DNA of 64,000 nucleotides from Candidatus Brocadiales bacterium (GTDB taxonomy: Bacteria > Planctomycetota > Brocadiia > Brocadiales > Bathyanammoxibiaceae), in contig JBHIBD010000002.1 of NCBI GenBank assembly GCA_046758865.1, forward strand, positions 4,128-68,127, read 5' to 3'. The stretch's first letter is position 1. Each line of letters starts with the position of its first letter. The notes beneath the pieces are model-generated. The model worked only from the letters and a program-made list of their open reading frames with translations, did no database searches and was not told the DNA's origin. Positions 45,128 to 62,861 of this stretch are shown one piece after another. The translations under genes were made by a program, and so were the position numbers.

Positions 45128-45155
45128 GTAAAATCTTACTGTATACCATTTTGTG

Positions 45156-45389: not shown

Positions 45390-47288
45390 ATGGCGGAGGC
45401 TCCCGAGGTAAGTGTCACCGTAGGATTCAAACAGCCAGAGCTCCTTGTATCCATACAAGAAGAACCCATAATAAGATATAAGGGTTCCCACAAACAGCTA
45501 CTCGAAGACAAGAAGTACGACGTAACTACCTCTTTAGACCAGAGTTGGTTTCCTCACAACATACCCTGTAGAGTGGGCTGCCCTATCGGTACTGACGCCA
45601 GGTCTTACTCACTGGCAATTTCTGAGGGCAAGAATCAGCTTGCCTACCTTCTCGCCAGACAGAATAACCCCTTTGTATCCGTCCTAGGAAAGGTCTGTAA
45701 CGCACCCTGTGAGCCCGTCTGCCAGAGAGCAAAGATAGATTCACCCGTGTCAATAAGGGCGCTCAAGGGCTTTGCCGTTGAAAAGAGCAGGTTTAGCACA
45801 AGAGAGGTTTACGAGTGGCTGAACACAAAGAAATCGAAGGTAAACCTGCCCCAGGGGGACAGACCCCCGCGTGTCGCTATTGTGGGAGGAGGCCCAGCGG
45901 GTCTATCTGCTGCACATGACCTGGCCCTTATGGGTTACAAGGTCAAGGTCTTTGAGGCATCCAGCAGGCTGGGAGGCATGCTAAACGCCATACCTCCATA
46001 CAGGCTGGATAGTGAGACTATAAAGAAGGATATTGATGGCATACTCTATTTGGGTGTTGAGGTTGAGACAAACAAGACCTGCGGGAAGGATTTTGGGATA
46101 GATGAACTCCTTGGGCAGTTTGATGTCGTTCTCTTAGCTACCGGTCTTCAGAAGGGCAAGTTACCAAGTATACCCGGCACAGGGCTTCAGGGTGTGCTTC
46201 ATGGAGTAGAGTTTATGAAGTGCGTTGTCTCTGGAGAGAGGGTGGAGCTGGGAAGAAATGTGGTGGTCTTGGGAGGAGACAACGTTGCTGTAGATATTGC
46301 CCGCACGGCCCTACGGCTGGGAGGAAGAAATGCACGGGTTAGCGTGGTTTGTGTTGAGGCCACAAAGGGTTCGAGGCCATACAGCCCAGAGGATGAGATG
46401 CCAGCCGATGCATCCAGGGTATCCGAGGCCAGGAAAGAGGGAGTCGTATTCCGCACCTCTCTAGCACCAGAGGAGATTCTGGGGGAGCGTGGCAGGGTTA
46501 ATGGGTTGAGGGTAAGGTCTGTTATCACAGTTTATGACAGTGATGGGCGTTTTAACCCTACATATAAGAGTGGAAAACGGCGAGTCTTGGGGGCTGATAT
46601 GGTTATCCTCAGCTTGGGCCAGGAGCTGGACCTGTCGTTCATAGAAAGATGCAAGGGCCTTGAGCCTACGGCTGATGGCGGGTTGGAGATGGACCCGGCG
46701 ACCATGATGACCGCCAAGAGAGGGGTATTCTTGTGTGGGGACATGGCTAAAGCCGGACATATTGTAGACGCTATAGCCTCTGGCCAGAAGGCCGCTCAGT
46801 CTATCCACCAGTATCTTGGAGGGACGGGTTCCCTGGGGCTGAAGGGCCCGAATGGAATTGAACCTGTTCACCACCATGAGAAGCATGACACCTTTGCCAT
46901 AAGGTGCTCAATATGGAAATTACTCCCGCCCGCGTTGTCCCCAAATAAAAGCAGGGGAAATATGGCGCTTGTGGAGGGAAGTTACTCCGATTACGAGGCA
47001 CGAAGACAGGGGCAGAGGTGCATTGACTGTAGTATAAGCCCTATGATTAGTCCTTATAATCCCTGTACCCTCTGTGGTGATTGTGTGGACTCGTGTCCGA
47101 CCGAGTGTATATCTATGAAGTTTATAAATAGGGCGGACCTTAATGGAGTACTGGGGGAGACCCGGGGTAACGGCCCCTGGGTGAGTCTCTTAATAGACGA
47201 CAGCGAATGTGTCCACTGTGGCGCGTGTGCAGAGGCGTGCAGCTCGGACTCTATATATATGGTGAGGTTTAAAGAGGTTAGTGGATAG
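45390..47288 (+). CDS. GltD-like FAD/NAD(P)-binding oxidoreductase with N-terminal FeS region and C-terminal 2x[4Fe-4S] ferredoxin domain (cluster 1)
   Basis: VAIVGGGPAGLSAAHDL, a second Rossmann fold, CTLCGDCVDSCP and CVHCGACAEAC. ATG 45390 follows GAGGAGGAGGG. Confidence 0.85.
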   Translation: MAEAPEVSVTVGFKQPELLVSIQEEPIIRYKGSHKQLLEDKKYDVTTSLDQSWFPHNIPCRVGCPIGTDARSYSLAISEGKNQLAYLLARQNNPFVSVLGKVCNAPCEPVCQRAKIDSPVSIRALKGFAVEKSRFSTREVYEWLNTKKSKVNLPQGDRPPRVAIVGGGPAGLSAAHDLALMGYKVKVFEASSRLGGMLNAIPPYRLDSETIKKDIDGILYLGVEVETNKTCGKDFGIDELLGQFDVVLLATGLQKGKLPSIPGTGLQGVLHGVEFMKCVVSGERVELGRNVVVLGGDNVAVDIARTALRLGGRNARVSVVCVEATKGSRPYSPEDEMPADASRVSEARKEGVVFRTSLAPEEILGERGRVNGLRVRSVITVYDSDGRFNPTYKSGKRRVLGADMVILSLGQELDLSFIERCKGLEPTADGGLEMDPATMMTAKRGVFLCGDMAKAGHIVDAIASGQKAAQSIHQYLGGTGSLGLKGPNGIEPVHHHEKHDTFAIRCSIWKLLPPALSPNKSRGNMALVEGSYSDYEARRQGQRCIDCSISPMISPYNPCTLCGDCVDSCPTECISMKFINRADLNGVLGETRGNGPWVSLLIDDSECVHCGACAEACSSDSIYMVRFKEVSG

Positions 47289-47297
47289 AAAAGGCTT

Positions 47298-47795
47298 ATG
47301 GGTAAGTCTGCAGTGAAGGCAGAAAATATAGCGAAAGTCAGCCGGCGTGAGGCCATGAGGAAGGGCATCTTCTGGGCCTGTTGGGGCACGTTCATAGGTT
47401 TTGCAGGTATGTTGGGCGCCAGCATAGTGCGCTATGCGTATCCGAGGATAGTTTTTGAGCCATCAAGCCTATTTAAGATAGGTAAGCCAGATGAATATGC
47501 GATGGGCTCGGTCACCCTGATAGAAGGCCGCAGGGTGTTCATTGTTCGGGACGAGAAGGGCTTTTATGCCCTTTCGGCCATATGCACCCATCTGGGCTGT
47601 CAGCCCATCTGGGAGGAGGATAAACAGATATTCATGTGTCCCTGCCACGGCGGGCGTTTCTACAAGGACGGGATAAACTTTGCGGGCCCGCCCCCAAGGC
47701 CCCTGCCCAGGCTACACATGGGTTTTGCCCCTGACGGCCGCCTCATGGTCGATAAGTCCAAAGAGGTCGGAATGGATTTTATATTAGTGGTCTGA
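47298..47795 (+). CDS. Rieske [2Fe-2S] subunit (cluster 1)
   Basis: CTHLGC and CPCHGG boxes, SRREAM Tat-like motif, TM anchor. Confidence 0.9.
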   Translation: MGKSAVKAENIAKVSRREAMRKGIFWACWGTFIGFAGMLGASIVRYAYPRIVFEPSSLFKIGKPDEYAMGSVTLIEGRRVFIVRDEKGFYALSAICTHLGCQPIWEEDKQIFMCPCHGGRFYKDGINFAGPPPRPLPRLHMGFAPDGRLMVDKSKEVGMDFILVV

Positions 47796-47805
47796 GAACT
47801 TTGCT

Positions 47806-48426
47806 ATGAAATGGGTTCCATTAGGTCTTGTTAGATATACGTTCTGTCTGGGCGGGCTTAGTGTCTTCTTTTTCCTGATATGCATACTTACCGGGCCATT
47901 CCTGATGATGTATTACATACCCAGCGTTGACAGGGCGTGGGCAGACGTCCAGGACCTGAGCAACGTGGTGCCGTTTGGCAGGTTTGTCAGGAACATCCAC
48001 AGGTGGTCAGCATGTCTCATGGTTATATGTGTACCAGCCCACATGCTGAGGGTGTTTCTCCAGGCAGCTTACAAGCCACCGAGGCAGCTCAACTGGCTGG
48101 TGGGGGTTACGCTGCTTTTGCTGACATACTTAATGGCCTTTACGGGGTATCTCCTGCCCTGGGATAACGAGGCCTACTGGGCGGCCACTGTAGGTATGAC
48201 CATGGCAGAGAACAGTCCAATACTTGGGGCCAAGGGTCCATTTAGTGTGTTGGGCCCGGATACGGACATACATTATATGTTACTGGGGGGTACAGTCTTG
48301 GACCAGCCATCTCTTACACGGTTCTTCTTTGCCCACTGCGTGGCTATACCCGGGGCTATGGCTGGATTAATGGGACTCCATTTTTATAATATCCACAGGG
48401 CAGGTGGGATGTCCGGCCCTCTATAA
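47806..48426 (+). CDS. Cytochrome b6-like subunit (N-terminal cyt b, cluster 1)
   Basis: H-x13-H (helix B) and H-x14-H (helix D) heme ligands, FCLGG cysteine, PWD(N/Q) motif. Confidence 0.9.
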   Translation: MKWVPLGLVRYTFCLGGLSVFFFLICILTGPFLMMYYIPSVDRAWADVQDLSNVVPFGRFVRNIHRWSACLMVICVPAHMLRVFLQAAYKPPRQLNWLVGVTLLLLTYLMAFTGYLLPWDNEAYWAATVGMTMAENSPILGAKGPFSVLGPDTDIHYMLLGGTVLDQPSLTRFFFAHCVAIPGAMAGLMGLHFYNIHRAGGMSGPL

Positions 48427-48470
48427 TGATTGAGGTTATTGTTTGGTGAGTACACTGTGCGGAGGTCCTT

Positions 48471-48498
48471 GTAGTGGTCGAGCGAGCTCGACCACTAC
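48471..48498. repeat. REP-like hairpin GTAGTGGTCGAGCGAGCTCGACCACTAC inside cluster 1
   Basis: Lies in the 130-nt cyt b6/subunit IV spacer. The paralogous spacer in cluster 2 is 12 nt. Confidence 0.85.
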
Positions 48499-48556
48499 AA
48501 GACTAATCCGCCCAAGACGGACTATACAAATTAACTGGCTGGAGGTTTAAACGACA

Positions 48557-49336
48557 GTGGCTGGTGGACCGCATACTGGTAAAGAAAGATACAGGGTGAT
48601 GACGGTCGTCAAGGGTGAGGCCCTGAAGTCCAGGGATATATACGAGAGGCCGCCCAAGTATGAACTTTTCTTCCCGAATTTTGTTATGAAGGAGCTATGT
48701 GTCGGGCTGGCCTTCCTAATTATCCTCTTTGTTTGGGCCTACTTTAGGAATGCCCCCCTATATGAGCTGGCCGATCCAGGAGAGACCCCGGAGCACATAA
48801 AGGCCGCTTGGTACTTTGTTGGATTGCAAGAGATGCTGGCCTATTTTGACCCCTATTTGGCAGGGGTGATTATCCCAAGTGCTATATTGGCAGGACTTTA
48901 TCTTGCTCCCTTCCTTGATCCGGACCCCGTAAAGGGAATAGGCCGTTTCGCCTGGAAGGAGAGGAGGTTCGCCATGTGCACCTTCCTTGGGGGGTTTGTG
49001 TTTTGGTGGATGCTGATAATAGTAGGGTGGTATTTTAGAGGACCTTTGTGGGCCTTTTACTGGCCGTGGGAGGACCATTCTGTAGTCAAGGCCACAGAGG
49101 CTGTACAGTGGAACTTTCCTTTACCTGCGGGGATAGCCTACATAGTCGTCTTTTTTACCCTAGGAAACATTATACCTGCAATTATCTTTCCAAGGTTCTT
49201 TTACCGTCTGGGGATTGTTAGATACGTCATAACCATGTCCCTGTGGACGGGAATGATTTTTGTTGTGGCTAAGATGTTTCTGAGAAACGCCTTTGGCATT
49301 AAGTACATTTTAGTAACTCCATGGTTTAACGTGTGA
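48557..49336 (+). CDS. Cytochrome b C-terminal / subunit IV-like membrane subunit (cluster 1)
   Basis: KAAWYFVGLQEMLAYFDP (PEWY-like motif), multiple TM segments, GTG start. Confidence 0.82.
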   Translation: MAGGPHTGKERYRVMTVVKGEALKSRDIYERPPKYELFFPNFVMKELCVGLAFLIILFVWAYFRNAPLYELADPGETPEHIKAAWYFVGLQEMLAYFDPYLAGVIIPSAILAGLYLAPFLDPDPVKGIGRFAWKERRFAMCTFLGGFVFWWMLIIVGWYFRGPLWAFYWPWEDHSVVKATEAVQWNFPLPAGIAYIVVFFTLGNIIPAIIFPRFFYRLGIVRYVITMSLWTGMIFVVAKMFLRNAFGIKYILVTPWFNV

Positions 49337-49348
49337 GAGTGATGGGAT

Positions 49349-50692
49349 ATGATACCATTTCCAATTAATCTGTCCATTCCCTGGCTCATAGCGTTTCTGG
49401 TATTTGCGTGTGGCCTCGTAGCAACTTGTACTATATGGATATTTACCGAGTGGGGCGAGCCTGAGTGGAAGAAATATCAGCGGATAGAGCTAACGGAGAT
49501 GCGAGAAAACCTTGAAAAACAGTTACCCGTGCTGGAAGACCCCAAGTGGGGCGACCCCTCACAGGCCAAGATAGTAAGGGCCTCTATAGAGTTTCTCCGT
49601 AAACCGGACTACCAGATAAAGCAGATAATACTAAAGGGCCGAGGTAGCTGGAAGGAAGGCACAACCGGCATACCGGTGGACAGGTGCATGACCTGTCACA
49701 TAGACGAAGACAAGCTTACCAAGCAACACCCCTACACCAAAGACCACTTTGCCTATGACATCTATGGCTGCACGGTCTGCCACGAGGGCCAGGGCAGGGT
49801 GCTGACGAAGGAAGGTGCCCACGAGGGAATGTTGCGCAACAAGAGAGATATGATGCAGAGGATACAGAAGCCAGAGGAGATGGTGGCTTTATGGGAGAGG
49901 ATGGCCAAACTCTCTGTAGAGGAGGGAGATACGGCCTTTGATTTTAGGGATTATAGCGCTGCCGGAGAGAAGCTTGTGTACATGGGCAGCTTTGGCTGTC
50001 TTAAGTGCCATAGAAAACTTACCCCACGCCACGTTGAGGTGTGGGCGGATAACAAGTTCAAGACCTGGGAAAAGGTGCAAGCGGCAGAAGATTATGTTGA
50101 AGGTGACGAGAATTACCAGAAAAAGTGTTTGAAGTGCCACACCACGGGTTATGACGAAAAGACCGGTGAGTACGCCGAAGAGAACGTCACCTGTGAGGCC
50201 TGTCACGGACCGGGTGAGATGTATGTCAAGTTCATGAGCGAGGGAAAGCTGGCAGAGGCCGCTGTGGTGACCTACGAAGTGTTTAGTTTCAAGGTCTGCG
50301 GGAGATGTCATGTGTCGCGCAGACACGAGATGAGAGAGGCCATGCTGTTGGCTGTAGAGGAGGAGGAGGAGTTCTCAGAATGGCTGGCATCGTCCTTTGT
50401 TGAGGAATCAGATGCCCTTCACGCCAGCATTTCTGAAGAGACGGAGGCCTTCGGGTTAGAAGAACTGAAGGGATTGGAAGAGGTAGCTAACTCGTTGGAT
50501 ATGATGCTGGAGGATTTAAGGACATTGTTGCCTGAGCAAGAAGAAACTGTTCAAACTGCCGAGGAAGTGGAGCCTGACGGTGAAGGACCGCCACATCCAC
50601 TGAGGGCCAGACTAGAGGCCCCTGAGCCTTTCATGCAAGAGGCCCAGGCAGAGACGGCCAAAGAACCATTTAGTGGTAAGGGTGTGTATTAA
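49349..50692 (+). CDS. Membrane-anchored hexaheme cytochrome c with acidic C-terminal tail (cluster 1)
   Basis: N-terminal TM and six CXXCH motifs (CMTCH, CTVCH, CLKCH, CLKCH, CEACH, CGRCH). Confidence 0.88.
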   Translation: MIPFPINLSIPWLIAFLVFACGLVATCTIWIFTEWGEPEWKKYQRIELTEMRENLEKQLPVLEDPKWGDPSQAKIVRASIEFLRKPDYQIKQIILKGRGSWKEGTTGIPVDRCMTCHIDEDKLTKQHPYTKDHFAYDIYGCTVCHEGQGRVLTKEGAHEGMLRNKRDMMQRIQKPEEMVALWERMAKLSVEEGDTAFDFRDYSAAGEKLVYMGSFGCLKCHRKLTPRHVEVWADNKFKTWEKVQAAEDYVEGDENYQKKCLKCHTTGYDEKTGEYAEENVTCEACHGPGEMYVKFMSEGKLAEAAVVTYEVFSFKVCGRCHVSRRHEMREAMLLAVEEEEEFSEWLASSFVEESDALHASISEETEAFGLEELKGLEEVANSLDMMLEDLRTLLPEQEETVQTAEEVEPDGEGPPHPLRARLEAPEPFMQEAQAETAKEPFSGKGVY

Positions 50693-50697
50693 CCCGG

Positions 50698-50791
50698 GTA
50701 GGGGCACGGCATGCCGTGCCCCTTACTGGAGGTTGTCTGTAGCGTTGGAGCTTGCTCCAACGTTGAACGTGGCAGCAAGCTGCCACGCTAC
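50698..50791. repeat. REP-like hairpins inside cluster 1
   Basis: GTAGGGGCACGGCATGCCGTGCCCCTTAC (50698-50726) and GTAGCGTTGGAGC...GCTGCCACGCTAC (50739-50791). Confidence 0.85.
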
Positions 50792-50914
50792 ATTAAAAAT
50801 ATTTTTGCAATAAATGGATAACCGAGTGTAAAGAAAGGGGGTGGTGAAAAGGTATAAAAGAAGGCTAGTAGATCTCTCGTTACTAGAGGGAAATTTAAAA
50901 AAGGGGGATTAAGT

Positions 50915-52642
50915 ATGAAACAATGGAGCTTGCTTGCAGTGTTACTCTGTACGGGCTTGATTCTGGGAGTAGCGCCCAGTGCGGCGGTAGCCGAGGGGCC
51001 CTTCGCTGGTGATCCCAACGCCACCGTGGCAGCAGACCTTCCTCCTCTCAACCTGATGTACCCAGATAAGATGAAACCGGCCTGGGAGGAGTGGGTAGGT
51101 CTTGAGATGGGCGGTGGGCCTTTTAGGAAGCTTTATAGGCCCATACCCATGCACATGTACATTGCTCCCACAAAGCACTATATCAGGCCTGACATGTCTG
51201 GGTTTGCTGAGTTGTTCAAGAAGTTCCAGCCCGGCCAGTGCGAGGAGTGCCATATGGAGGTAACTCCCGGCTGGGTCCACCAGTGGGAAGATTCTGCCCA
51301 CGGCAACCCGAAGCACAAGGCAAAGTGGGCCGAGAAGACGAAGGCAATAGAAAAGAAGCTGGGCAGGACACTTGACAAGGTGGGCTGCGCTGAGTGTCAC
51401 GGCTCAAGCCACGACAGGCTTCAGATGCCCAACCTGGACAACTCCTGCGCACACTGCCATGAGCAGCAGGCCAAGGAGTTTGTCGCCGGGAAGAAGCAGG
51501 GCAGACCGAGCCACTTTCACAGTTGGATCTCAAATATTGTACCCCCCTGGTATATTGAGAACTACAGGAGGGGTGAAGGTGCAGGCATGATTGGCTGCGA
51601 CGTCTGTCACCCTGAGATGCAGCGCTGTGACGGCTGCCACATGAGGCATCTCTTCGGCACCAAGATGGCCAAGAAGCCCGGCACCTGCGGAAAGTGTCAC
51701 ATGGGTTATGACCACCCGGACTATGAGTCCTATACCAAGTCCGCTATGGGTGTTATCTATCAAGATACTGGCGCCGAATGGAACTGGGACTTGAACATGG
51801 AGGACATAGTCCCTGGTAAGGACTGGAGGGCGCCGACCTGTGCCTACTGCCATATGTATCAAGGCGGTGGGAAGTGGGGCCACACCGAGAACATCAATGG
51901 CATCTGGCGCATGGGTGTCTATAAGCCCAAGCAGAGGAACTATGAGTACAAGTCCAGCTTGAAGAATTCTCCCTACGGGATAAACATCCCGCCTCTTAAC
52001 AGGATTGTGGATGTTGACTCACCTGAGCTCAAGAAGAGAAGGGAGAACTGGATTGAACTCTGCTCCAACTGCCACAGCCCACGCTTCTCCAGGCTCTGGC
52101 TGGAGAACCTGGACGAGTTCATGCTGATAGGCTGGCAGCACACGGATGCAAGTATGGCCGTGTTGGACGACCTGTATAAGGCAGAGGCTATTATACCCAC
52201 GCCGGAGAATCGTGACCCATGGTTTCTTGGTGACGTGCTTGCCGACATACTGGGGCCGAAGAAGCTGGGTGAGACCCTTTACAACGCCTTCAAGACCACA
52301 CAGGGCCACTTCCCGATTTATGGGCCTATCCTTGCTACCGGCGACCAATATGTGACAGGTCCAGGCCGGCCGCACGAGATAGAGCTTTACCTTAATGAGC
52401 AGTGGTTCAGTCATCTGCTGAAGGCCTTCAAGGGTACTGCCCATGCCCAGCAGGATTACTCCTGGTGGTACGGTTGGTCGCCGATGTTGAAGGACCAGGC
52501 CAGGATACAGTCTAACGCCGTTAACCTCTACAGGCTGCTGGCTATAGAGAAGAAGCTAGGTATCAAGGCCAGTGGAGAACTGCCCAGCGACAAGAAGATT
52601 TACGGGCATACTCCTCTCTACACCAGCGGTAAGAGGAAGTAG
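50915..52642 (+). CDS. Octaheme hydroxylamine-oxidoreductase-like (HAO-family) cytochrome c (cluster 1)
   Basis: Signal peptide and eight CXXCH motifs (CEECH, CAECH, CAHCH, CDVCH, CDGCH, CGKCH, CAYCH, CSNCH). Confidence 0.88.
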   Translation: MKQWSLLAVLLCTGLILGVAPSAAVAEGPFAGDPNATVAADLPPLNLMYPDKMKPAWEEWVGLEMGGGPFRKLYRPIPMHMYIAPTKHYIRPDMSGFAELFKKFQPGQCEECHMEVTPGWVHQWEDSAHGNPKHKAKWAEKTKAIEKKLGRTLDKVGCAECHGSSHDRLQMPNLDNSCAHCHEQQAKEFVAGKKQGRPSHFHSWISNIVPPWYIENYRRGEGAGMIGCDVCHPEMQRCDGCHMRHLFGTKMAKKPGTCGKCHMGYDHPDYESYTKSAMGVIYQDTGAEWNWDLNMEDIVPGKDWRAPTCAYCHMYQGGGKWGHTENINGIWRMGVYKPKQRNYEYKSSLKNSPYGINIPPLNRIVDVDSPELKKRRENWIELCSNCHSPRFSRLWLENLDEFMLIGWQHTDASMAVLDDLYKAEAIIPTPENRDPWFLGDVLADILGPKKLGETLYNAFKTTQGHFPIYGPILATGDQYVTGPGRPHEIELYLNEQWFSHLLKAFKGTAHAQQDYSWWYGWSPMLKDQARIQSNAVNLYRLLAIEKKLGIKASGELPSDKKIYGHTPLYTSGKRK

Positions 52643-52656
52643 TGAGTGATTATTAT

Positions 52657-52699
52657 GGGGGAGCCGCCTGCTCAAGAGTAGGCGGCCCCTCCATTTTTT
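52657..52699 (+). terminator. Rho-independent terminator after HAO-like gene 1
   Basis: GGGGGAGCCGCCT / AGGCGGCCCCTCC stem (one mismatch), 10-nt loop, then ATTTTTT. Confidence 0.6.
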
Positions 52700-52800
52700 A
52701 GATTTGTGTTGTTGTGTCTTTCTACGGGTGTTTGTTTTTTTCTCCGGGGGTATAGGATCGAGGAGTTTAGGTGGCTTAATAGTTTTTGCAGGGGACTTTG

Positions 52801-53300: not shown

Positions 53301-53516
53301 GAGAGTAATGGGTTTTAGTTGGGAAAGACTGCCATTCATGTGCCCTCATGTCTGACCTCCCAGCCCTTTCTGGGCCTGCTTGCCCTAAGTAGTTCTTAAG
53401 GAAAGAGGACCACTACCACAACCCTCTTTAAGGTTAAAGATCAACTCTCCACCCGCCTTGACTTTTTTAAAAAAAGTTCTTGCAAATACTATTTTGTGTG
53501 GTATAGTTTTCGACAT

Positions 53517-53675: not shown

Positions 53676-53689
53676 AAGGCACACGCAGG

Positions 53690-54347: not shown

Positions 54348-54348
54348 G

Positions 54349-54544: not shown

Positions 54545-54584
54545 TAGACGAAAATGTCTTAATTGTAAACGGTGTAAACAATGT

Positions 54585-54768: not shown

Positions 54769-54827
54769 AGTGGATAGTCTTAAAAATGGTAAGTGGTGAT
54801 AGTCTCATTTTCTTATAAAGGGAAGAT

Positions 54828-56795
54828 ATGCGCAGAGAGCCTGTCAGTTCTATAACAATAAACTTCAAGGAAGAAGCATTCTCAATATCTCTAGAAGAGC
54901 TCTCCCTGATGAGGGCCAAGCATCTGGAGGCCGCGCGGCAATCTGCGCGGAGCGATATACCTATAGCCACCTCTGTGGATAAGGAATGGTTTAGTGAAAA
55001 TGTACCCTGTCGCCGCACCTGTCCGGCTCGCACCAATGCCAGGGGCTATGTAATGGCCATTGCTGAAGGCAGGTACCAGGAGGCCTATCTGATTGCCAGG
55101 AGGAATAACCCCTTTGTTTCCGTCTGCGGCAAGGTCTGTGGTGCGCCCTGTGAGTCGGCCTGCCGGAGGGGCAAGGTGGATGAGGCGGTATCTATAAGGG
55201 CCTTGAAGGATTTTGCCGTAGAAAGCAACCGCCTGAGTACTGAAGAGGTTTATCGCTGGCTGGGGCAGAAGATGGAGAGGGTGGTGCCGGTGGTGAGGGG
55301 GAGGAAGTCTCCCCGTCTCGTTTCAGTTTGTAGTGAGCGCACTCTTTCAAGCCAACCCGTTTGCTCCCCGGCCCGGGTGGCAATAGTTGGTGCGGGGCCC
55401 GCCGGTCTTTCGGCCGCCCATGACCTGACCCTCATGGGCTATCAGGTAAAGCTCTATGAGGCCAGCAGTAACCCTGGTGGTATGCCTGCCAATGCACTGC
55501 CCTTCTTCAGGCTGGATAGAGAGGCGGTGAGGAAGGATGTGGAATCCATACTCTCTCTGGGCATAGAGCTGGAAGTTAATAAGGTCTGCGGAAAGGACTT
55601 CAGCATTGACCAGCTCTGGGAGGAGTTTGATGCAGTCCTTATAGCAGTGGGGCTCCAGAAGGGGAGGGTTATCCCCATCCCAGGGGTGGAGTTGTCGGGG
55701 GTCTTATCGGGGTTGGACCTCTTGATGGACGTAGCGGCTGGCCGAAAGGTTACTTTGAGTCAGAAGGTAATGGTAGTGGGAGGGGGATGCGTGGCTACGG
55801 ATGTAGCCAGGGCAGCGGTGAGATTGGACTCCACCAGGGAGGTGCACCTGGTATGCCTAGAGGCCATGAAGGGCTGTAGACCCGATGATCCCAGGGAGGA
55901 GATGCCTGCCTGGGTCGGTGACGTTGTAGATAGTAAGGAGGAAGGAATCATCTTTGATACCTCCTGTAGCCCCAAGAGGGTGGTGGGTCAGAATGGCAGG
56001 GTCAAAGGTCTAGAGGTGATAAGGGTAAGCTCTGTTTACGACTCTGAGGGTCGTTTCAAACCCACCTATATCCCAGGTACAGAACGTATCATAGAATGCG
56101 AGAACATCCTCTGGGCCGTGGGTCAGGCCCCTGATATGAGTTTCCTGGAAGGTAGTCAGGGTTTTGAGCTTAACCAGAGGAAGATGCTAAAGGTAGACCC
56201 CGTTACCCAGGCCACTTCCAAGCCTGGAGTCTTTGCCTGTGGTGACATCCTGGGTCCTGGCCTGGTAATAGACGCAGTAGCCTCGGGTCAACGGGCTGCC
56301 CAGGCCATCCATCAGTACCTGGGAGGTAGCGGCTTCCTGGGGTTGAGCAGACAGGTGCGCATGGAGGCTATACCCGTTCCCCGTAGGTTTGAGAGGTTCT
56401 TCCCCGGAATCTCCTTGAAAAGGCTACTTCCTGCCCTGCTGCCTCCCAAGGAGAGGCTCAAGGGATGGGAGGCCGCAGAGATACCTTACTCGGAATACGA
56501 TGCCCGGGAACAGGGCCGGCGGTGCCTCAACTGCAATGTCAGCCCGATAATAGGGCGGGAGAGGCCGTGTATCCTCTGTGGGGGTTGTGTAGACGTCTGC
56601 CCCACCAGGGCTATCTCTATGGTCTATCTGGATGATTCAGTGGTGAAAGAGTCAGCCCTCTTGGATGGCGGGGCAGGTGGTGGGCCCTGGGTAGGGCTGA
56701 CAAAAGATGAGGAGCTTTGCATCCACTGCGGGCTGTGTGACTATCGCTGTCCTGTTGATGCCATTTCAATGGTGAAGTTTGAGGAAATCTTGTAG
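54828..56795 (+). CDS. GltD-like FAD/NAD(P)-binding oxidoreductase with FeS domains (cluster 2)
   Basis: Paralogue of 45390-47288. VAIVGAGPAGLSAAHDL, CILCGGCVDVCP, CIHCGLCDYRCP. Confidence 0.85.
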   Translation: MRREPVSSITINFKEEAFSISLEELSLMRAKHLEAARQSARSDIPIATSVDKEWFSENVPCRRTCPARTNARGYVMAIAEGRYQEAYLIARRNNPFVSVCGKVCGAPCESACRRGKVDEAVSIRALKDFAVESNRLSTEEVYRWLGQKMERVVPVVRGRKSPRLVSVCSERTLSSQPVCSPARVAIVGAGPAGLSAAHDLTLMGYQVKLYEASSNPGGMPANALPFFRLDREAVRKDVESILSLGIELEVNKVCGKDFSIDQLWEEFDAVLIAVGLQKGRVIPIPGVELSGVLSGLDLLMDVAAGRKVTLSQKVMVVGGGCVATDVARAAVRLDSTREVHLVCLEAMKGCRPDDPREEMPAWVGDVVDSKEEGIIFDTSCSPKRVVGQNGRVKGLEVIRVSSVYDSEGRFKPTYIPGTERIIECENILWAVGQAPDMSFLEGSQGFELNQRKMLKVDPVTQATSKPGVFACGDILGPGLVIDAVASGQRAAQAIHQYLGGSGFLGLSRQVRMEAIPVPRRFERFFPGISLKRLLPALLPPKERLKGWEAAEIPYSEYDAREQGRRCLNCNVSPIIGRERPCILCGGCVDVCPTRAISMVYLDDSVVKESALLDGGAGGGPWVGLTKDEELCIHCGLCDYRCPVDAISMVKFEEIL

Positions 56796-56809
56796 AGAGG
56801 TCGTATGCG

Positions 56810-57328
56810 ATGTTTAAGTCTAAGTCTATGACTCATAGAGAGGGAGCTATACCCCTGGGGCTCAAGAGGCCCTCCAGACGGCAGGCCCTGTGGACTGCGC
56901 TCTGGTGGAGTGGCTGGGGGGTAATCTTTGGCATGCTCTGTGTTGCAGGGGCAACCCTGGTGCGGTTCCTCTACCCCAGGGCCACTTATGAGCCCTCTAA
57001 GGTCTTTAAGGCCAAGAGGCCTGAGCAGTACGCAATGGGCTCGGTAAACCTGGTGCCCGGCCGAAAGGTCTGGATAATACGGGAAGAGAGGGGCTTTTAT
57101 GCCCTCCTGGCCATATGTACCCATCTGGGTTGCCAGCCGGTGTGGTATGAAAGCCAGCAGATATTTAAATGCCCCTGCCACGGCAGCCGCTTTTATAAGG
57201 ATGGGATAAACTTCGCTGGCCCGGCCCCCAGGCCCCTGGAGCGCATGGAGATTACCTTGGCTAGCGATGGGCGGCTGGTGGTGAATGAGGGCAAGGCAGT
57301 GGATATAGACTACTTCCTGAATGTCTAG
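56810..57328 (+). CDS. Rieske [2Fe-2S] subunit (cluster 2)
   Basis: CTHLGC and CPCHGS boxes, SRRQAL Tat-like motif. Confidence 0.9.
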   Translation: MFKSKSMTHREGAIPLGLKRPSRRQALWTALWWSGWGVIFGMLCVAGATLVRFLYPRATYEPSKVFKAKRPEQYAMGSVNLVPGRKVWIIREERGFYALLAICTHLGCQPVWYESQQIFKCPCHGSRFYKDGINFAGPAPRPLERMEITLASDGRLVVNEGKAVDIDYFLNV

Positions 57329-57351
57329 CTATTCCTTTTAGGAGGAGAGCG

Positions 57352-58086
57352 ATGAATATATTCGTCCAGATATGGAGGTCTATATTCAGGACTGGTGTCT
57401 CTGACAGCCCCCTCCACCGGGTCTTCCGGGTGGTGGCAAATTTTATCCTCCATATCCATCCGTCCCGGGTGAGCAAGGAAGGCATAAAGTTTAATTACAC
57501 CTTCTGCCTGGGTGGGCTCAGCCTCTTCTTTTTTGTAGTCACTGCCATAACCGGTGGGTTTCTGATGATTTATTATGTACCCGATGTGGATAAGGCCTAT
57601 TCCAGCATGAAGGACCTGGACGATGTAGTACCTTTCGGCACATTTCAGAGAAACCTCCACCGCTGGGCAGCCCACCTGATGGTCGTCTTTGTGCCCCTGC
57701 ACATGCTAAGGGTATTTTTGACCAGCTCTTATAAACCACCCAGAGAGTTTAACTGGGTCATCGGGGTGGGCCTGCTTATGATAACCTTCTTGCTCAGTTT
57801 TACGGGCTATCTACTGCCATGGGACCAGTTGTCTTTTTGGGCAGTAACGGTAGGAGCTACCATGGGGGAAAATACCCCTCTTCTGGGCGCTAAAGGCCCT
57901 TTTAGCCTCTTGGGTCCGGAAGAGGATGTCCATTTTATCCTTTTGGGTGGCACCGCCATAGACCAGCCTACCCTCATCCGCTTTTATTTTGCCCACTGTG
58001 TGGGCCTGCCAGGGGCCGCAGCGGGATTAATGGCCATCCACTTCTGGAGGATTAGAAAGGCAGGAGGCATCTCTAGGCCCTTGTAG
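57352..58086 (+). CDS. Cytochrome b6-like subunit (cluster 2)
   Basis: H-x13-H, H-x14-H, FCLGG. 38 aa longer at the N-terminus than copy 1. Confidence 0.9.
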   Translation: MNIFVQIWRSIFRTGVSDSPLHRVFRVVANFILHIHPSRVSKEGIKFNYTFCLGGLSLFFFVVTAITGGFLMIYYVPDVDKAYSSMKDLDDVVPFGTFQRNLHRWAAHLMVVFVPLHMLRVFLTSSYKPPREFNWVIGVGLLMITFLLSFTGYLLPWDQLSFWAVTVGATMGENTPLLGAKGPFSLLGPEEDVHFILLGGTAIDQPTLIRFYFAHCVGLPGAAAGLMAIHFWRIRKAGGISRPL

Positions 58087-58098
58087 TGTCTTAGACCA

Positions 58099-58875
58099 AT
58101 GGCTGAGAAAACAGAAAGCAAAGAAAAGGTTAGACTCCTTACCGTGGTGAGAGAGGACGTCCTGCTCAGGCAGCGGGATGTCTATCCTAAGGAAGTGAAG
58201 GTAGACACCTGGCCCCACTTGGTGAAGAGGGAACTCATAGCCCTGCTGGCGGCCTCCGTAGTGCTGATGGTCTGGAGCCTGGTACAGGATGCCCCCCTGG
58301 AGGAGCTGGCCAATCCTAGTGAGACCCCCAAGGAGGCCAAGGCCCCCTGGTATTTCGTGGGCCTGCAGGAACTGCTGGTATATTTTGACCCCTGGATAGC
58401 AGGGGTGGTGCTGCCTACGGTCATCCTTATTGGCCTGGCCATTATACCCTATATAGACCCTGACCCTGTAAAGGGGGTGGGCCGCTACACCCTTGGGAAG
58501 AGAAAGTTTGCCGTGTCCTGCTTCATTGGTGGCTTTGCTATGTGGTTTGTCTTGGTGGTAGTGGGACAGTATTTTCGGGGTCCCTTCTGGAGCTTTTACT
58601 GGCCCTGGGAGGGCCGGGAGGTGGTGAAGCCCATGGAGGCGGCCCTGGTCAGTTTCCCCCTGCCAGTAGGCATAGCCTTTCTGGTATGTTATGGGGCCCT
58701 GGTGCTCATCCTCCCTGCTATCTTCTTCAAGAATTTCTTCTTCAGGCTGGGCCTTATACGATATTTCATTACCATGAATCTATTTGCTGGCCTGCTCTTT
58801 GTGCCTATCAAGATATTCCTGAGGCACATCTTGCATGTCAAATACATACTGGTAACCCCCTGGTTTAACGTGTGA
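58099..58875 (+). CDS. Cytochrome b C-terminal / subunit IV-like subunit (cluster 2)
   Basis: KAPWYFVGLQELLVYFDP. Paralogue of 48557-49336. Confidence 0.82.
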   Translation: MAEKTESKEKVRLLTVVREDVLLRQRDVYPKEVKVDTWPHLVKRELIALLAASVVLMVWSLVQDAPLEELANPSETPKEAKAPWYFVGLQELLVYFDPWIAGVVLPTVILIGLAIIPYIDPDPVKGVGRYTLGKRKFAVSCFIGGFAMWFVLVVVGQYFRGPFWSFYWPWEGREVVKPMEAALVSFPLPVGIAFLVCYGALVLILPAIFFKNFFFRLGLIRYFITMNLFAGLLFVPIKIFLRHILHVKYILVTPWFNV

Positions 58876-58887
58876 AGGTAAAGCGAT

Positions 58888-60216
58888 ATGGCATGGAGGA
58901 TACCCTTTGTTGTCTTATCGGTAGCCCTGCTGGGCCTGCTCATCATCTGGATTATCAGGGAGATTAACCCCCAGTGGAAGGGCCATCAGGAGGCCGCTTA
59001 TGCCCAACAGGTGGAGAGACTGGAGCAGGAGTTGGAGAGGTGGTCCGACCCTAAATGGGGGGACCCTGTCACGGCAGAAAAGGTGAGACAGAGGATTGAG
59101 GCCCTAAAAAGACCCCACCTGGGAGTAAAACAGATACTCCTTAAAGGCACCGGGCTCTGGAAGGAGGGGGAAAACGGGGAGAAGGTGGACAGGTGTATGA
59201 CCTGCCATATAGATGAAGACAAATTGGTAGAACTGCACCCCAAAACATTTGATTATTTCCCTTATGACATCTATGGCTGTACGGTCTGCCACGGAGGTCA
59301 TGGCGAATCCCTCCGGCTGGAGAAGGCCCATAAGGGCATGCATACCGACAGGAAAGAGATGATAGGTACGATAGACACCGCTGACGCCGTGCTGGAACTG
59401 TGGAAGGAACTGGCCAAACTCTCCCCGAAGGAGGACCAAAGGGCCTCAGATTATAAGTATTACAGCATAACCGGCGAGAAGGCGGTCTACGTGGGCAGCA
59501 TCACCTGCCTCAGGTGTCACAAGGGCCTCACCACCTGGCACATTAACCGCTGGAAGGACAACAAGTTTGTCACAATGGAACGGGTCAAAAAGGCCAGAGA
59601 TTTTATAGAGGGTGATGAAGACTACAGGAAGAAGTGTTACAAGTGCCATACCACCGGGTACGATGAAGAGAGCGGCAAATATGTAGAGGAAGGTGTGACC
59701 TGTGAGGCCTGCCACGGACCCGGCCAGCTTTACGTTTATTTTATGAGTATGGGAAAGGTAGAAGAGGCCCAGAGGCTCAGCAAGCTGGGCTTTAGCTACG
59801 AGGTCTGTGGCAGATGCCATATGGCCAGGCACCACGAGATGAGGGCTCAATTCCTGGCCAAGATTCAATCCGAAGGCCCGAAGTCCCAGGTTCTGGCGCA
59901 GGAAGTAGAAAAGAAAGAGGCCCTTCAGAAAGAAACCTCTCAGGAAGAGGTGATACCTGTTTCCTTACAGGTGCCCGTATTTGAGGTGTCTCCAGAGATA
60001 TCCCCCTTCTCGGAAGACAACACCATCAGGGAAATTAAACTGGTAATCCCTGAAGTAGGGGCTGCCCCTCCGGCCCAGAAGGCTGAGGAGCAAGAAGCCG
60101 TGTCTTTGGATATAGATAATAGAAGTACCCACAGTGGAAAGGAGGGATTACCCCTTAAAACCCAGACTGAAGCCTTACAAGAAGCAGCGACCACACCTCG
60201 AGGCGAAGACCCATAG
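58888..60216 (+). CDS. Membrane-anchored hexaheme cytochrome c (cluster 2)
   Basis: Six CXXCH motifs (CMTCH, CTVCH, CLRCH, CYKCH, CEACH, CGRCH). Confidence 0.88.
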   Translation: MAWRIPFVVLSVALLGLLIIWIIREINPQWKGHQEAAYAQQVERLEQELERWSDPKWGDPVTAEKVRQRIEALKRPHLGVKQILLKGTGLWKEGENGEKVDRCMTCHIDEDKLVELHPKTFDYFPYDIYGCTVCHGGHGESLRLEKAHKGMHTDRKEMIGTIDTADAVLELWKELAKLSPKEDQRASDYKYYSITGEKAVYVGSITCLRCHKGLTTWHINRWKDNKFVTMERVKKARDFIEGDEDYRKKCYKCHTTGYDEESGKYVEEGVTCEACHGPGQLYVYFMSMGKVEEAQRLSKLGFSYEVCGRCHMARHHEMRAQFLAKIQSEGPKSQVLAQEVEKKEALQKETSQEEVIPVSLQVPVFEVSPEISPFSEDNTIREIKLVIPEVGAAPPAQKAEEQEAVSLDIDNRSTHSGKEGLPLKTQTEALQEAATTPRGEDP

Positions 60217-60269
60217 TCCCCAGGGAGGTTAAGTGGGAGTAGAAAAAACCTTATAAGGAGGGAAGCGTT

Positions 60270-61877
60270 ATGAGATTACTGTTCATCATAGGGTTGGCCA
60301 CAGCAGTTATTTTGCTAGGGCCGAGTCAAGTCCAGGCCCAACAGGCCCCTGAGGGGAAGTCTTATACCTATCCCTCAGAGTCTCTTAAGAAGATGTACGA
60401 AGAGCACGTGGGGCTGGATAAGGGAGATGGCCCCTTTGCTGAGGCCTATAAGCCCATACCTCTCTACATGTATATGAGTCCTGCCAGGCACTACATACGG
60501 CCAGACATCAAGATGTTTGCTGAGCTGCTGGAAAAATTTCAGCCCGAGCAGTGTATAGAATGCCACACCGAGGTCACCCCGGGGATAGTCAAGGCTTGGC
60601 AGAGCTCCACCCATGCCCAGCCCAAGAAAAATGGGTATTTCGCCGCAAAGACCGCTGAGATAGAGAAGCGCCTGGGACGGGAGATAAAAGAGGTATACTG
60701 TGGGGATTGCCACGGCAAGAACCATGATGTGCTGCAGATGCCCACCGTGGATAATTCCTGCGGAGAGTGCCATGTGCAGCAGGCAGAGGAGTTTGCCTCT
60801 GAGAGGGAGTATGGTCGGCCCAACCACATCCAGAGTTGGGAGTCCAACGTGGTGGTGCCCTGGTATATAGAGATATACCGCCAGGGGGAGGGCGCCTCCC
60901 TGATAGGCTGTGACCTGTGCCATGTGGAGATGGCCAGATGCGACGGATGCCACACCAGGCATAGCTTCTCAGCCGCTGAGGGCAGGAGGCCCCAGGCATG
61001 CGGTAGTTGCCACATGGGACCAGACCACCCCGATAGGGAGACCTACAGCTATTCTAAGATGGGCACTATTTACGACCTGGAGGGTGAACACTGGCCCTGG
61101 GACAAGCCCTTGAAGGATGTCGTTCCTGGAGAGGACTATAAGAGCCCCACCTGTCAGTATTGCCATATGTATAAGGGGGGTGGGGAATGGTGGATTAACC
61201 CCGTCAGCAAGGGCATCTGGCGCATGGGCACCGTACCTCCGAAGGAGGTAGAGTATCAGTCCAGCCTCAAGGATTATCCCTACGGAATTACTATCCCTCC
61301 TTTGAATAAGAAGCTGGAGATATATTCCCCACAGAATCTCCAGAAACGAGAGCAGTGGATAGAACTGTGTGGCAGGTGCCACAGCAGCCGCTTTGCCCGA
61401 CTGTGGCTGGAAAACCTTGACCAGTATATGTTCCTGTCCTTCAAGAAGCAAGACCAGGCCCAGAAGATACTTGATGAGGTCATTGCCGAGGGGCTGCTTG
61501 ACCCAGCTCCTGGAGACAGGGCCATCTTCCCTATGGGGGATGTACTGGCCGAGGCCCTGGGTCCAGATAATTTAGGGATGGGTATCTACAAGGCCTTTAA
61601 GGAGAGTAAGGGGCATATCCCTGTAGTAGGCCCCATCCTGGGGGTCTACTCTGCTTTCATCACGGGACCCGGCAATCCCAGTACTATAGAGAGGGAGTAC
61701 TCGGAGATGTGGTTCTGGTACAAGCTCAAGGGCTACAAGGGCACAGCCCATGCCCAGCAGGACTACTCCTGGTGGTATGGTTGGTCACACATGATTGGTT
61801 CACTAGCCCACATCCAGGATGAGGCCGACAAGCTCAGGAGGCTCAAGGCCCTGGAGGTGACAACCAAGCTTAAGTAA
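60270..61877 (+). CDS. Octaheme HAO-like cytochrome c (cluster 2)
   Basis: Signal peptide and eight CXXCH motifs (CIECH, CGDCH, CGECH, CDLCH, CDGCH, CGSCH, CQYCH, CGRCH). Confidence 0.88.
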   Translation: MRLLFIIGLATAVILLGPSQVQAQQAPEGKSYTYPSESLKKMYEEHVGLDKGDGPFAEAYKPIPLYMYMSPARHYIRPDIKMFAELLEKFQPEQCIECHTEVTPGIVKAWQSSTHAQPKKNGYFAAKTAEIEKRLGREIKEVYCGDCHGKNHDVLQMPTVDNSCGECHVQQAEEFASEREYGRPNHIQSWESNVVVPWYIEIYRQGEGASLIGCDLCHVEMARCDGCHTRHSFSAAEGRRPQACGSCHMGPDHPDRETYSYSKMGTIYDLEGEHWPWDKPLKDVVPGEDYKSPTCQYCHMYKGGGEWWINPVSKGIWRMGTVPPKEVEYQSSLKDYPYGITIPPLNKKLEIYSPQNLQKREQWIELCGRCHSSRFARLWLENLDQYMFLSFKKQDQAQKILDEVIAEGLLDPAPGDRAIFPMGDVLAEALGPDNLGMGIYKAFKESKGHIPVVGPILGVYSAFITGPGNPSTIEREYSEMWFWYKLKGYKGTAHAQQDYSWWYGWSHMIGSLAHIQDEADKLRRLKALEVTTKLK

Positions 61878-62129
61878 GTCACCCCACTGGTGACTGAGGA
61901 GAGGGCCCCCCCTGCCCCAGGCATGCCAACCTGGGTCAGACAGAGCCCACCTCTGTAAGTCCACCCTCCGTGTGGGTAAGGGCTCTCTCCTTTTCTATCA
62001 TAAATATGCGTGCCCATTTCGCATGTGTCGGGTTTTTCGGAGGGTTCGTATGGTTTAAGGCCCATTTCTACGGGTGTTTGTTTTCTCTCCGGGGTGCAGG
62101 TTCGGGGGGTTTAGGTAACTTAATAGTTT

Positions 62130-62340
62130 TTGTATTGAGAGCTGTGAAAAAGTTTATAGTACCGTTTTAAATCTTCCCCCTCCCTTGAGGGGAGGGGGAC
62201 AGGGGGAGGGTGATGCCAGAACATTCTAAATATTCCTGGTGTAAGTGAATATGTCAAGGTTAACAACCACCCCCACCCTTACCCTCCCCCCTCAAGGGGG
62301 AGGGAGAACTGGGTTTGAACCCCTGGAAAAGACACTTTTG
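62130..62340. mobile_element. ~200-bp MITE-like insertion with CCCCCTCCCTTGAGGGGAGGGGG / CCCTCCCCCCTCAAGGGGGAGGG hairpin ends
   Basis: Absent from the homologous position in copy 1 (52785-52795). Flanked by TTTTG on both sides. Confidence 0.6.
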
Positions 62341-62361
62341 CAGAGGTCTCATTGGACTTTT

Positions 62362-62861
62362 ATAAGGGTTCCATTCTAAACTGCGTTAAAAGGAGGAGGA
62401 CCGCCAATGCCACTTAGGGGCGAGACTGATGCTACTACTTCATTGGATGTGAAAAGTGCAATAGACCTTCAGCCCACGGAGCTGAAGATTAACCCTGCTG
62501 GAAAGGTGACTCTCACCCTCCCCGGGATGAAGATAAGGCTGCCCGATGTTAAGGTGAAGCTCTGGTTTATGCCCCTTATCCGAGTGAGTGGCATGGAGGT
62601 GACTACGGAGCCTGCAAACCTCGAGGTGGATTTGTCGGATACGACAATGGAGGCCAGGGTAGAGCGTGCTACAAAGATAGAGATTCTTACTAATGGAGAG
62701 GTAAAGGCGCACGCCAAGCTGGAGGGTTCGGGTAGCCTCCAAGGCGGACCTATGAGCCTGGAGATTCCCGCAGATTAACTTCTTCCTGAGTCGAGAACAA
62801 GTCAGTAGATCACGGGTTTTATGTTGTGGCCTATGAACGTTTCTCTGTGCCTGTATCTAAA
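62362..62861 (+). repeat. 500-bp perfect direct repeat, copy 2
   Basis: Identical to 52801-53300. Confidence 0.9.
62407..62778 (+). CDS. Orphan 123-aa hypothetical protein (copy 2, identical)
   Basis: Same sequence as 52846-53217. Confidence 0.6.
   Translation: MPLRGETDATTSLDVKSAIDLQPTELKINPAGKVTLTLPGMKIRLPDVKVKLWFMPLIRVSGMEVTTEPANLEVDLSDTTMEARVERATKIEILTNGEVKAHAKLEGSGSLQGGPMSLEIPAD

Follow-up and report, generated by a model that had tools for sequence, protein, structure and literature searches.

Two diverged R/b-3-like Rieske/cytochrome b gene clusters on one contig of a Candidatus Brocadiales bacterium

Gene content of clusters A and B

Contig JBHIBD010000002.1 of a Candidatus Brocadiales bacterium (assembly GCA_046758865.1) carries two neighbouring gene clusters for unusual Rieske/cytochrome b complexes, which are the subject of this analysis. 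They lie in a stretch of 64,000 nucleotides (positions 4,128 to 68,127 of the contig, forward strand), hereafter called the window, and all positions below are window positions unless a locus is named. Cluster A (45390-52642) and cluster B (54828-61877) are co-linear on the plus strand and hold the same six kinds of subunit, numbered 1 (GltD-like flavoprotein), 2 (Rieske protein), 3 (cytochrome b6), 4 (subunit IV), 5 (hexahaem cytochrome c) and 6 (octahaem HAO-like protein). The original prediction, made from the bare sequence, had listed these twelve open reading frames (ORFs), and a check of the window confirmed each of them on the plus strand at the coordinates given below. It had also recognised them as anammox-type Rieske/cytochrome b clusters that also encode a flavoprotein of NAD(P) type and an HAO-like protein with eight haems; this is borne out by Pfam, NCBIfam and the CXXCH counts, which are six in the hexahaem and eight in the HAO-like proteins, in A and B alike.

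The first gene of cluster A (A1, 45390-47288) encodes a GltD-like FAD/NAD(P) and iron-sulphur (FeS) oxidoreductase with matches to Pfam Fer4_20, Pyr_redox_2 and Fer4_7 and to NCBIfam PRK12771 (E 6e-111). Its longest ORF begins with TTG at 45375, and an independent gene call on Logan contigs starts at the ATG at 45390, giving 632 amino acids (aa). With a two-cluster, 2x[4Fe-4S] ferredoxin domain at its C-terminus according to Pfam, A1 is a GltD/DPD-like flavoprotein. B1 (54828-56795, 655 aa) is its counterpart (PRK12771, E 2e-119). The Rieske 2Fe-2S protein of cluster A (A2, 47298-47795; Pfam Rieske) has the motif CPCHGGRF and lacks, in the motif alignment, both the Ser and the Tyr of the type discussed below, and that of cluster B (B2, 56810-57328), identified by PDB matches and alignment, reads CPCHGSRF, with Ser kept and Phe replacing Tyr. 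The top PDB match of A2 is 9rk4 (E 4e-33), which we take to be Kuste4569; B2 scores 106 bits against 9rk4 and 103 bits against 9rk3.

The cytochrome b6-like protein A3 (47806-48426, 206 aa; Pfam Cytochrome_B and alignment) lacks the N-terminal ~40 residues, including the equivalent of His43, and keeps the haem-cn Cys (in TFCLGG) and the four b-haem His. B3 (57352-58086, 244 aa) has a complete N-terminus with the His of the LHIHP motif, as read from the alignment and the Pfam annotation of an identical Logan gene. The subunit-IV-like proteins A4 (48557-49336; Pfam Cytochrom_B_C and alignment) and B4 (58099-58875; precomputed Pfam annotation and alignment) carry the Qo motifs KAAWYF and KAPWYF, respectively. 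Next come the membrane-anchored hexahaem cytochromes c A5 (49349-50692; Pfam Cytochrome_C554 and related families) and B5 (58888-60216; NCBIfam), of which A5 is 46-47% identical to the R/b-3 hexahaem proteins of Kuenenia and Brocadiaceae. Both end in acidic low-complexity tails of ~110 residues (50300-50692 and 59850-60216) that are absent from the shorter Kuenenia/Brocadiaceae homologues (358-363 aa). The last of the six are the predicted exported octahaem HAO-like proteins A6 (50915-52642; Pfam Multi-haem_cyto) and B6 (60270-61877; NCBIfam; PDB 6h5l, E 1.7e-179), both placed by the tree with the kustc0458/kuste4574 (HAOr) type. The N-termini of the HAO-like and hexahaem proteins are hydrophobic, and reading them by eye as export signal or membrane anchor is compatible with the proposed topology.

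A candidate promoter of cluster A, TTGACA-16-TATAAT (45157-45184, plus strand), lies ~200 nt 5' of A1 and is put forward from its match (12/12) to the sigma-70 consensus. No match as good occurs upstream of B1, and a consensus scan for promoters and terminators gave no more sites than shuffled sequence, so that only the perfect consensus before A1 is of note. A G+C-rich, terminator-like hairpin with a T run follows A6 (52657-52700, plus strand); it was read from the sequence and not flagged by the consensus scan. An Rfam search of the window from 44 to 64 kb gave no matches.

Kinship with the Kuenenia complexes and age of the paralogy

The Kuenenia R/b-3 complex is encoded by genes for a Rieske protein (kuste4569), a flavoprotein (kuste4570), cytochrome b (kuste4571), subunit IV (kuste4572), a hexahaem protein (kuste4573) and an HAO-like octahaem protein (kuste4574), and clusters A and B share this content. 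In both a Rieske protein, a split, four-helix b6-type cytochrome b and a long subunit IV occur together, as seen by Pfam and by alignment with the Kuenenia R/b-3 locus (L007); the membrane hexahaem protein is homologous to kuste4573 (six CXXCH, 46-49% identity to R/b-3 hexahaem proteins); the HAO-like octahaem protein, as the final gene of the six, lacks the Tyr cross-link, judging from alignment alone; and an FAD/FeS oxidoreductase of NAD(P) type is present. They differ from R/b-3 in that the flavoprotein gene stands first, not between the Rieske and cytochrome b genes, and belongs to another GltD clade than kuste4570. They differ also in the Rieske motif, CPCHGSRF in B and CPCHG(G/A)(R/K)F in A against the high-potential CPCHGSKY of R/b-3 with its Ser and Tyr (hence Ser/Phe in B and Gly or Ala/Phe in A), and in having a 123-aa seventh gene and two paralogous versions.

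The R/b-2 complex (kustd1480-kustd1485) likewise has a Rieske protein, b6, subunit IV and a GltD-like flavoprotein, and its Rieske motif has Ser/Phe as in type B. It has no HAO-like subunit: a Kuenenia-type R/b-2 locus (L056), found with the Kustd1480 Rieske sequence, encodes in order Rieske protein, cytochrome b, flavoprotein, subunit IV and a 945-aa octahaem protein. Because both A and B have a hexahaem and an HAO-like protein in place of this large octahaem protein, and because their gene order is not that of R/b-2, both have the content of R/b-3; we hold with moderate confidence that they are two variants of the Kuenenia R/b-3 complex and that neither is R/b-2. The suggestion that content and order match both R/b-2 and R/b-3 thus stands for the content of R/b-3 only, since R/b-2 has no HAO-like protein, the order differs from both and the flavoprotein is of another GltD lineage.

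The nearest solved relative of B6 is 6h5l, presumably kustc0458, the nitrite reductase HAOr (kustc0457/kustc0458). A6, B6, the kuste4574 orthologues and kustc0458 all have eight CXXCH motifs, the catalytic Asp-His pair and a Trp at the position of the cross-link Tyr of the Nitrosomonas protein NeHAO; around this Trp the local motif of A6 and B6 is that of the kuste4574 orthologues. HAOr forms NO from nitrite, and for Kuste4574, the operon-linked HAO type, the literature knows no activity. HAOr is soluble and paired with a dihaem protein, whereas the genes of A6 and B6, like kuste4574, stand in a Rieske/cytochrome b operon behind the hexahaem gene. Like cytochrome b6f, both clusters have a cytochrome b split into b6 and subunit IV, a haem-cn Cys within TFCLGG, four b-haem His and a Rieske protein of b6f-like fold. 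The clusters are set apart from it by the missing cytochrome f gene, a subunit IV of ~258 aa, a Qo motif A(P/A)WY (KAPWYF in B, KAAWYF in A) in place of PEWY, and the extra multihaem, HAO and flavoprotein subunits.

Relatives were sought by a scan of species-representative genomes and of JGI metagenomes, and three kinds were recovered: A-type clusters (62-95% identical), B-type clusters (59-91%) and R/b-3 loci of Kuenenia and Brocadiaceae. Neighbour-joining distance trees with 200 bootstraps were built, one per subunit. In all six, the A-type and the B-type proteins are each monophyletic and are each other's sisters, with Kuenenia R/b-3 and R/b-2 outside. The bootstrap values for A+B are 87-92 for the flavoprotein (gltD), 92 for the hexahaem protein, 58-85 for cytochrome b, 42-56 for the Rieske protein and 31-58 for subunit IV; the HAO tree has the topology of the others, and its support values were not read out. 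In the hexahaem and HAO trees A+B adjoin the R/b-3 proteins, and in the former the clade of A, B and Kuenenia R/b-3 has 89% support. The proposal that each copy might be orthologous to R/b-2 or to R/b-3 therefore found no support: as A and B are sisters and the Kuenenia complexes lie outside, the A/B split does not reflect that between R/b-2 and R/b-3 but arose by duplication inside this lineage.

The flavoproteins of A and B group with the proteins of gltD-Rieske-cytochrome b clusters from Aminicenantes, Nitrospirae and Bryobacteraceae, and are split with 94-100% support from the clade that holds the kuste4570 and kustd1483 types, a clade itself supported at 95%. Database matches to the window flavoprotein agree with the tree, since non-Brocadiales proteins (40-44% identity) rank above those of Kuenenia. 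The non-anammox clusters, in metagenome-assembled genomes (MAGs) of Aminicenantes, Nitrospirae/Thermodesulfovibrionia and Bryobacteraceae, show the same gene order and the nearest flavoprotein lineage; unlike A and B they have a fused cytochrome b (413-518 aa), distant multihaem proteins and no HAO-like match in the scanned locus flanks. Six such loci were recorded (L015, L021, L023, L027, L033 and L034), most of them also with a multihaem c match. With such clusters in these MAGs, NAD(P)-linked Rieske/cytochrome b complexes are not confined to anammox bacteria. In the MAG nzgw511 a flavoprotein gene of the kuste4570/kustd1483 type (L002, 1593-3263) lies directly 5' of the B-type cluster.

The original prediction had called the paralogues old, with synonymous sites differing throughout, and this proved correct. 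By pairwise alignment, subunits 1 to 6 of A and B are 48.6, 54.5, 63.5, 52.9, 46.4 and 52.3% identical, and the 42/52 identical residues claimed for the Rieske core were recovered when the 52-residue stretch was counted by eye. Nonsynonymous divergence (dN) is 0.28-0.48, synonymous divergence (dS) is 1.9-2.7 or saturated beyond computation, and third-position identity is 0.36-0.43. With identities of 46-64% and such dS values the duplication is ancient, and both copies are under purifying selection. Two relatives have both types on separate contigs: CSMAG_3136 (A-type L001 and B-type L009, coverage 9.0 and 8.96) and nzgw511 (A-type L062 and B-type L002). The latter, which carries hzs and hzoA, is a bona fide anammox MAG, and a MAG labelled Hypogeohydataceae YC41 has A-type genes identical to its own; neither hydrazine synthase nor hydrazine dehydrogenase genes lie within the 64-kb window. 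Since relatives too have both types, at separate loci, the paralogy is old and has been kept. We think it probable, with the same moderate confidence as above, that the duplication is older than the divergence between the lineages of the window and of nzgw511/YC41 and that both types were retained since, normally at separate loci, and that the host is a deep-branching anammox-type member of Brocadiales of ~50% G+C whose nearest identified relatives include nzgw511.

Features that distinguish type A

The signatures of type A were read in the Rieske, cytochrome b and subunit IV proteins of six loci (the window, L001, L008, L039, L040 and L062), and each was found in all six. Cytochrome b is 206 aa long, starts with MKWVPLGL, lacks the N-terminal ~40 residues and hence the His of the LH(L/I)HP motif, and has His in place of the Arg247 equivalent. 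The Rieske motif is CPCHG(G/A)(R/K)F, and the Qo motif of subunit IV is KAAWYF. The cytochrome b N-terminus and KAPWYF are kept in the B-type proteins, in Kuenenia R/b-3 and R/b-2, and in the outgroups.

In yeast mutants the Rieske Ser and Tyr raise the potential by ~130 and ~65 mV, and in a published AlphaFold3 model His43 and Arg247 of Kuste4571 hold an extra haem b toward the flavoprotein (2025 Rieske study). Type A still has the flavoprotein, the haem-cn Cys and its four b-haem His. From the sequences, the type-A Rieske centre is probably lower in potential and the modelled extra haem-b site is probably absent. Because the type-A Rieske protein is without both hydrogen-bond donors, the Qo motif is AAWY, and cytochrome b lacks both the His segment and the Arg247 equivalent, A and B are probably not redundant; their redox set points or their partners would differ.

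As to mechanism, we apply the published hypothesis for Kuenenia R/b-3, in which bifurcation to NAD(P)H is a proposal from the literature, to both modules on the basis of their parts list and sequence signatures. Menaquinol would be oxidised at the Qo site. One electron would pass through the Rieske protein and the hexahaem protein to the HAOr-type octahaem protein and reduce nitrite to NO there; the other would pass through the b haems to the FeS clusters and FAD of the cytoplasmic subunit and reduce NAD(P)+.

The seventh gene, the juxtaposition of the clusters and its meaning

Both clusters are followed by an ORF of 123 aa on the plus strand, copy 1 after A6 (52846-53217) and copy 2 after B6 (62407-62778), which the original prediction did not mention. 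The two copies are 100% identical. They lie in direct repeats of 548 bp, R1 (52793-53340) and R2 (62354-62901), which are 98.7% identical overall; the first 437 bp are identical, seven positions differ in the last ~110 bp, and each repeat then enters different unique sequence. The protein matches no Pfam or NCBIfam family. Its homologues form 18 clusters, and every one with a named source comes from a Brocadiales MAG; its dN/dS is 0.10-0.24, indicating purifying selection. In relatives the gene lies directly 3' of the HAO gene in A-type loci (L001, L038, L041, L048, L061 and L062) and in B-type loci (L042-L047 and L060); in the Kuenenia/Brocadiaceae R/b-3 loci examined, none was found behind the HAO gene. 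We treat it as a conserved seventh gene of the module.

Two of these loci have further peculiarities. L038 (6-3765) encodes the C-terminal part of an A-type HAO at the contig end, the 123-aa protein, a second, full-length A-type HAO and three Na+/H+ exchangers, and L048 (1-8334) has an A-type cluster with two 123-aa genes and, 4.4 kb on, an R/b-2-like set of Rieske, cytochrome b and subunit IV genes. In the window, the two 123-aa genes may have been homogenised over the 548 bp, or may themselves have been involved in the insertion proposed below. The dS values did not settle the direction of conversion; the shared 3' flank looks A-native.

Upstream of cluster A the window shares with L001, L008 and L040 the order HD-domain regulator, geranylgeranyl-reductase-like gene, A. 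In nzgw511/YC41 (L062, 3321-9462) the A-type cluster is preceded by genes for an acyl carrier protein, a FabA-like protein, two ketoacyl synthases, an amine-oxidase-like protein and a B12/radical-SAM protein, at which position the window has the geranylgeranyl-reductase-like gene instead. Downstream, the order A, 123-aa gene, Na+/H+ exchanger genes is found in four relatives: CSMAG_3136 (L001), Ga0155546 (L038), Bea_3_bin.8 (L061), which is the closest relative found (86% nucleotide identity), and nzgw511/YC41 (L062/L063). With L048 added, the A-type flanks visible in relatives number five; all begin with the 123-aa gene and go on to Na+/H+ exchangers (four of five) or to other genes that are not B, and never to B. 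The B-type loci L060 and L009 have a small ORF with a signal like that of twin-arginine (TAT) transport and remnants of an IS3-family orfA on their 5' side, and the 123-aa gene and Tll0287-like genes on their 3' side.

The window combines both surroundings. The A-native flank ends at ~53333, with 53279-53333 matching the A-native flank of Bea_3_bin.8, and the B native upstream region begins at 53397. The spacer before B1 (53341-54827) is a mosaic homologous to L060 1-1600 and L009 4319-5780, that is, to the native upstream region of B, and in these relatives the IS3-family orfA remnants lie at the equivalent place (L060 840-1139 and L009 4912-5259). It contains a 255-nt unit twice in tandem (53690-54199), each with an ORF of 67 aa whose start resembles a twin-arginine signal (MMRDSRRSILQQ), and the B1 5' end a further three times (53890-53977, 54145-54347 and 54588-54711); one of these copies encodes, at 54191-54409, the ~52 residues with which B1 begins. 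A chimeric 97-aa ORF (54399-54692) consists of both ends of the 123-aa gene around a phosphotransferase-system (PTS) HPr piece and a B1 5' piece, the HPr-domain piece being ~89% identical to 3950-4054 of the window; 53517-53676 is ~80% identical to 1971-2130. On the other side, a Tll0287-like gene (62964-63608, plus strand; Pfam PF11845) with a likely start at ATG 62964 (longest ORF from TTG 62880) follows copy 2 of the 123-aa gene; an orthologue adjoins B in CSMAG_3136, and Tll0287-like genes follow the 123-aa gene of B in L060. The A-native locus then resumes: the last 91 bases of the window (63910-64000) are 80-82% identical to sequence just 5' of the Na+/H+ exchanger genes in L061 (4031-4122), L001 (10455-10522) and L038 (4259-4325). 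The boundaries of the proposed insertion fall in unique sequence, at 53341-53396 and 63618-63909.

Because the A flank of relatives never leads into B and the sequence upstream of the Na+/H+ exchanger genes reappears after B, B appears to have been placed beside A secondarily. A segment of ~10.6 kb, comprising cluster B together with its upstream region, 123-aa gene and Tll0287-like gene, would have been inserted between the 123-aa gene of A and the Na+/H+ exchanger genes. This is the simplest reading, as an ancestral tandem layout would require several independent separations. In comparison with CSMAG_3136, the A locus has a dS of 0.62-0.89 (44075-52642 versus L001) and B with Tll0287 one of 0.18-0.30 (54828-63608 versus L009), lower by a factor of about three, the Tll0287-like gene (0.23) behaving like the B genes; dN is similar for the A locus and the B island. 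These values suggest that the island has a younger shared history with CSMAG_3136, through transfer or mobility.

A Campbell-type integration through the 123-aa gene was considered and rejected, for it would leave Tll0287 immediately behind the first copy of the repeat, contrary to the order observed. A plasmid or phage origin of the window was likewise rejected, since the remainder is housekeeping chromosome with genes for LptF/G, RNase G, Obg, DnaX, RpoN and similar proteins. Elsewhere in the window an 82-nt perfect direct repeat (1743-1824 and 24790-24871, 23 kb apart) was noted; it is not a tRNA, the tRNAs of the window lying at 31905-32859.

Taken together, we favour with moderate confidence the view that A and B are two ancient R/b-3-like paralogues of seven genes each, normally at separate loci, that the B island was inserted at the A locus, that type A has diverged in function, and, as part of this, that the tandem layout is a recent juxtaposition and not the original duplication. 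Some observations weigh against it. The functions of the proteins are inferred, and the bifurcation is unproven even in Kuenenia; type A keeps a flavoprotein without the modelled haem-b ligands, so that either electrons take another route in A or the model is wrong; and the 123-aa protein has no detectable family, its AlphaFold2 model (from a 17-sequence alignment) being unreliable (pLDDT 38). The trees are distance-based, with weak support for the short Rieske and subunit IV proteins, and mixed populations in the MAG, instead of transfer, could account for the B island's lower dS. Finally, the 437 identical bp of the repeat could have led a short-read assembler astray, and exact-protein look-ups of B1, the 123-aa, the 97-aa and the Tll0287-like proteins found only Logan pieces and no independent contig across the A-to-B junctions.

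These last two points bear on an assembly artefact, in which A and B are real and their adjacency was mis-threaded through the repeat, or the contig is a chimera of two strains; in one variant, included in the same estimate, the chromosome runs A, 123-aa gene, Tll0287, Na+/H+ exchanger genes and a 9.56-kb B unit is separately circular or tandemly repeated. The repeat spacing of exactly 9561 bp with identical cores would fit, as would the differing dS histories of the B island and the A locus. Logan contigs from two runs on the same samples, which hold A and B pieces at 100% identity, end at the repeat on both sides; the repeat itself is therefore real, and the path through it is without independent confirmation. 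We nevertheless judge such an artefact unlikely. The seven differences near the 3' ends of the repeat copies, and the different unique sequence beyond them, mark two distinct loci; a single repeat-mediated misjoin would not yield two boundaries in unique sequence with A-native sequence resuming past the right one; B and Tll0287 are neighbours in CSMAG_3136 and L060 as well; and apart from this the contig, on which dnaX, rpoN, obg and the RNase G gene lie, is ordinary chromosome. The adjacency, co-linearity and age of the clusters had led to the idea of a module duplicated in place and kept, or of R/b-2 and R/b-3 orthologues back to back, to which the near-equal scores of B2 against both Kuenenia Rieske structures (106 versus 103 bits) and the R/b-2-like set beside the A-type cluster of L048 lend some colour. 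We regard either as highly improbable. R/b-2 has another gene order, a 945-aa octahaem protein and no HAO-like gene; A and B are sisters in every tree; and the five A flanks of relatives, the separate contigs of CSMAG_3136 and nzgw511 (adjacency is not shared by these genomes with both copies) and the A-native sequence past B all speak against duplication in place. What survives of that idea is that both types were kept, at separate loci.

It would also be conceivable that A and B are redundant isoenzymes of one reaction, regulated differently (for example by nitrite, NO or oxygen levels), with sequence differences due to neutral drift. That both have the same subunits, equal numbers of haems and the same catalytic Asp-His pair agrees with this, and anammox genomes are known for many HAO paralogues and several nitrite reductase candidates. 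The type-A changes, however, are fixed across deep divergence in every A-type locus read, they affect critical places (the second-sphere Ser and Tyr of the Rieske protein, the Qo motif, the cytochrome b N-terminus and the Arg247 equivalent), and both copies are under purifying selection, which makes redundancy rather unlikely, if less so than the two preceding explanations. Going beyond our preferred reading, we raise only tentatively, as a possibility we would not expect to hold, that type A is a fourth class of anammox Rieske/cytochrome b complex and type B a mobile island, associated with insertion sequences (IS), that moves between related anammox lineages. If so, with its Rieske centre of low potential, its changed Qo pocket and no site for the extra interfacial haem b, type A would couple quinol, N-oxide and NAD(P) unlike R/b-3; it might, for instance, use a lower-potential acceptor at the HAO subunit or run toward quinone reduction.

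No account of paired R/b-3-like clusters from these lineages came up in our literature search, which was of incomplete coverage; this is weak evidence of novelty. The unusual Rieske/cytochrome b complexes that anammox bacteria possess have been proposed to make NAD(P)H by bifurcation and to supply NO through the HAO-like subunit. On this bioenergetic question the present lineage offers a natural experiment, two naturally diverged HAO-bearing complexes in one genome, of which type A is without exactly those residues that the recent model uses for its new haem b and without the residues that raise the Rieske potential. Because the A/B pair differs at precisely those residues, the claim of the structural model becomes a comparison that can be made. 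For the annotation of deep-branching anammox MAGs, such clusters are to be read as two R/b-3-like types and not as R/b-2 plus R/b-3, and, as the B island suggests, a respiratory module can be mobile in its entirety, as an island.

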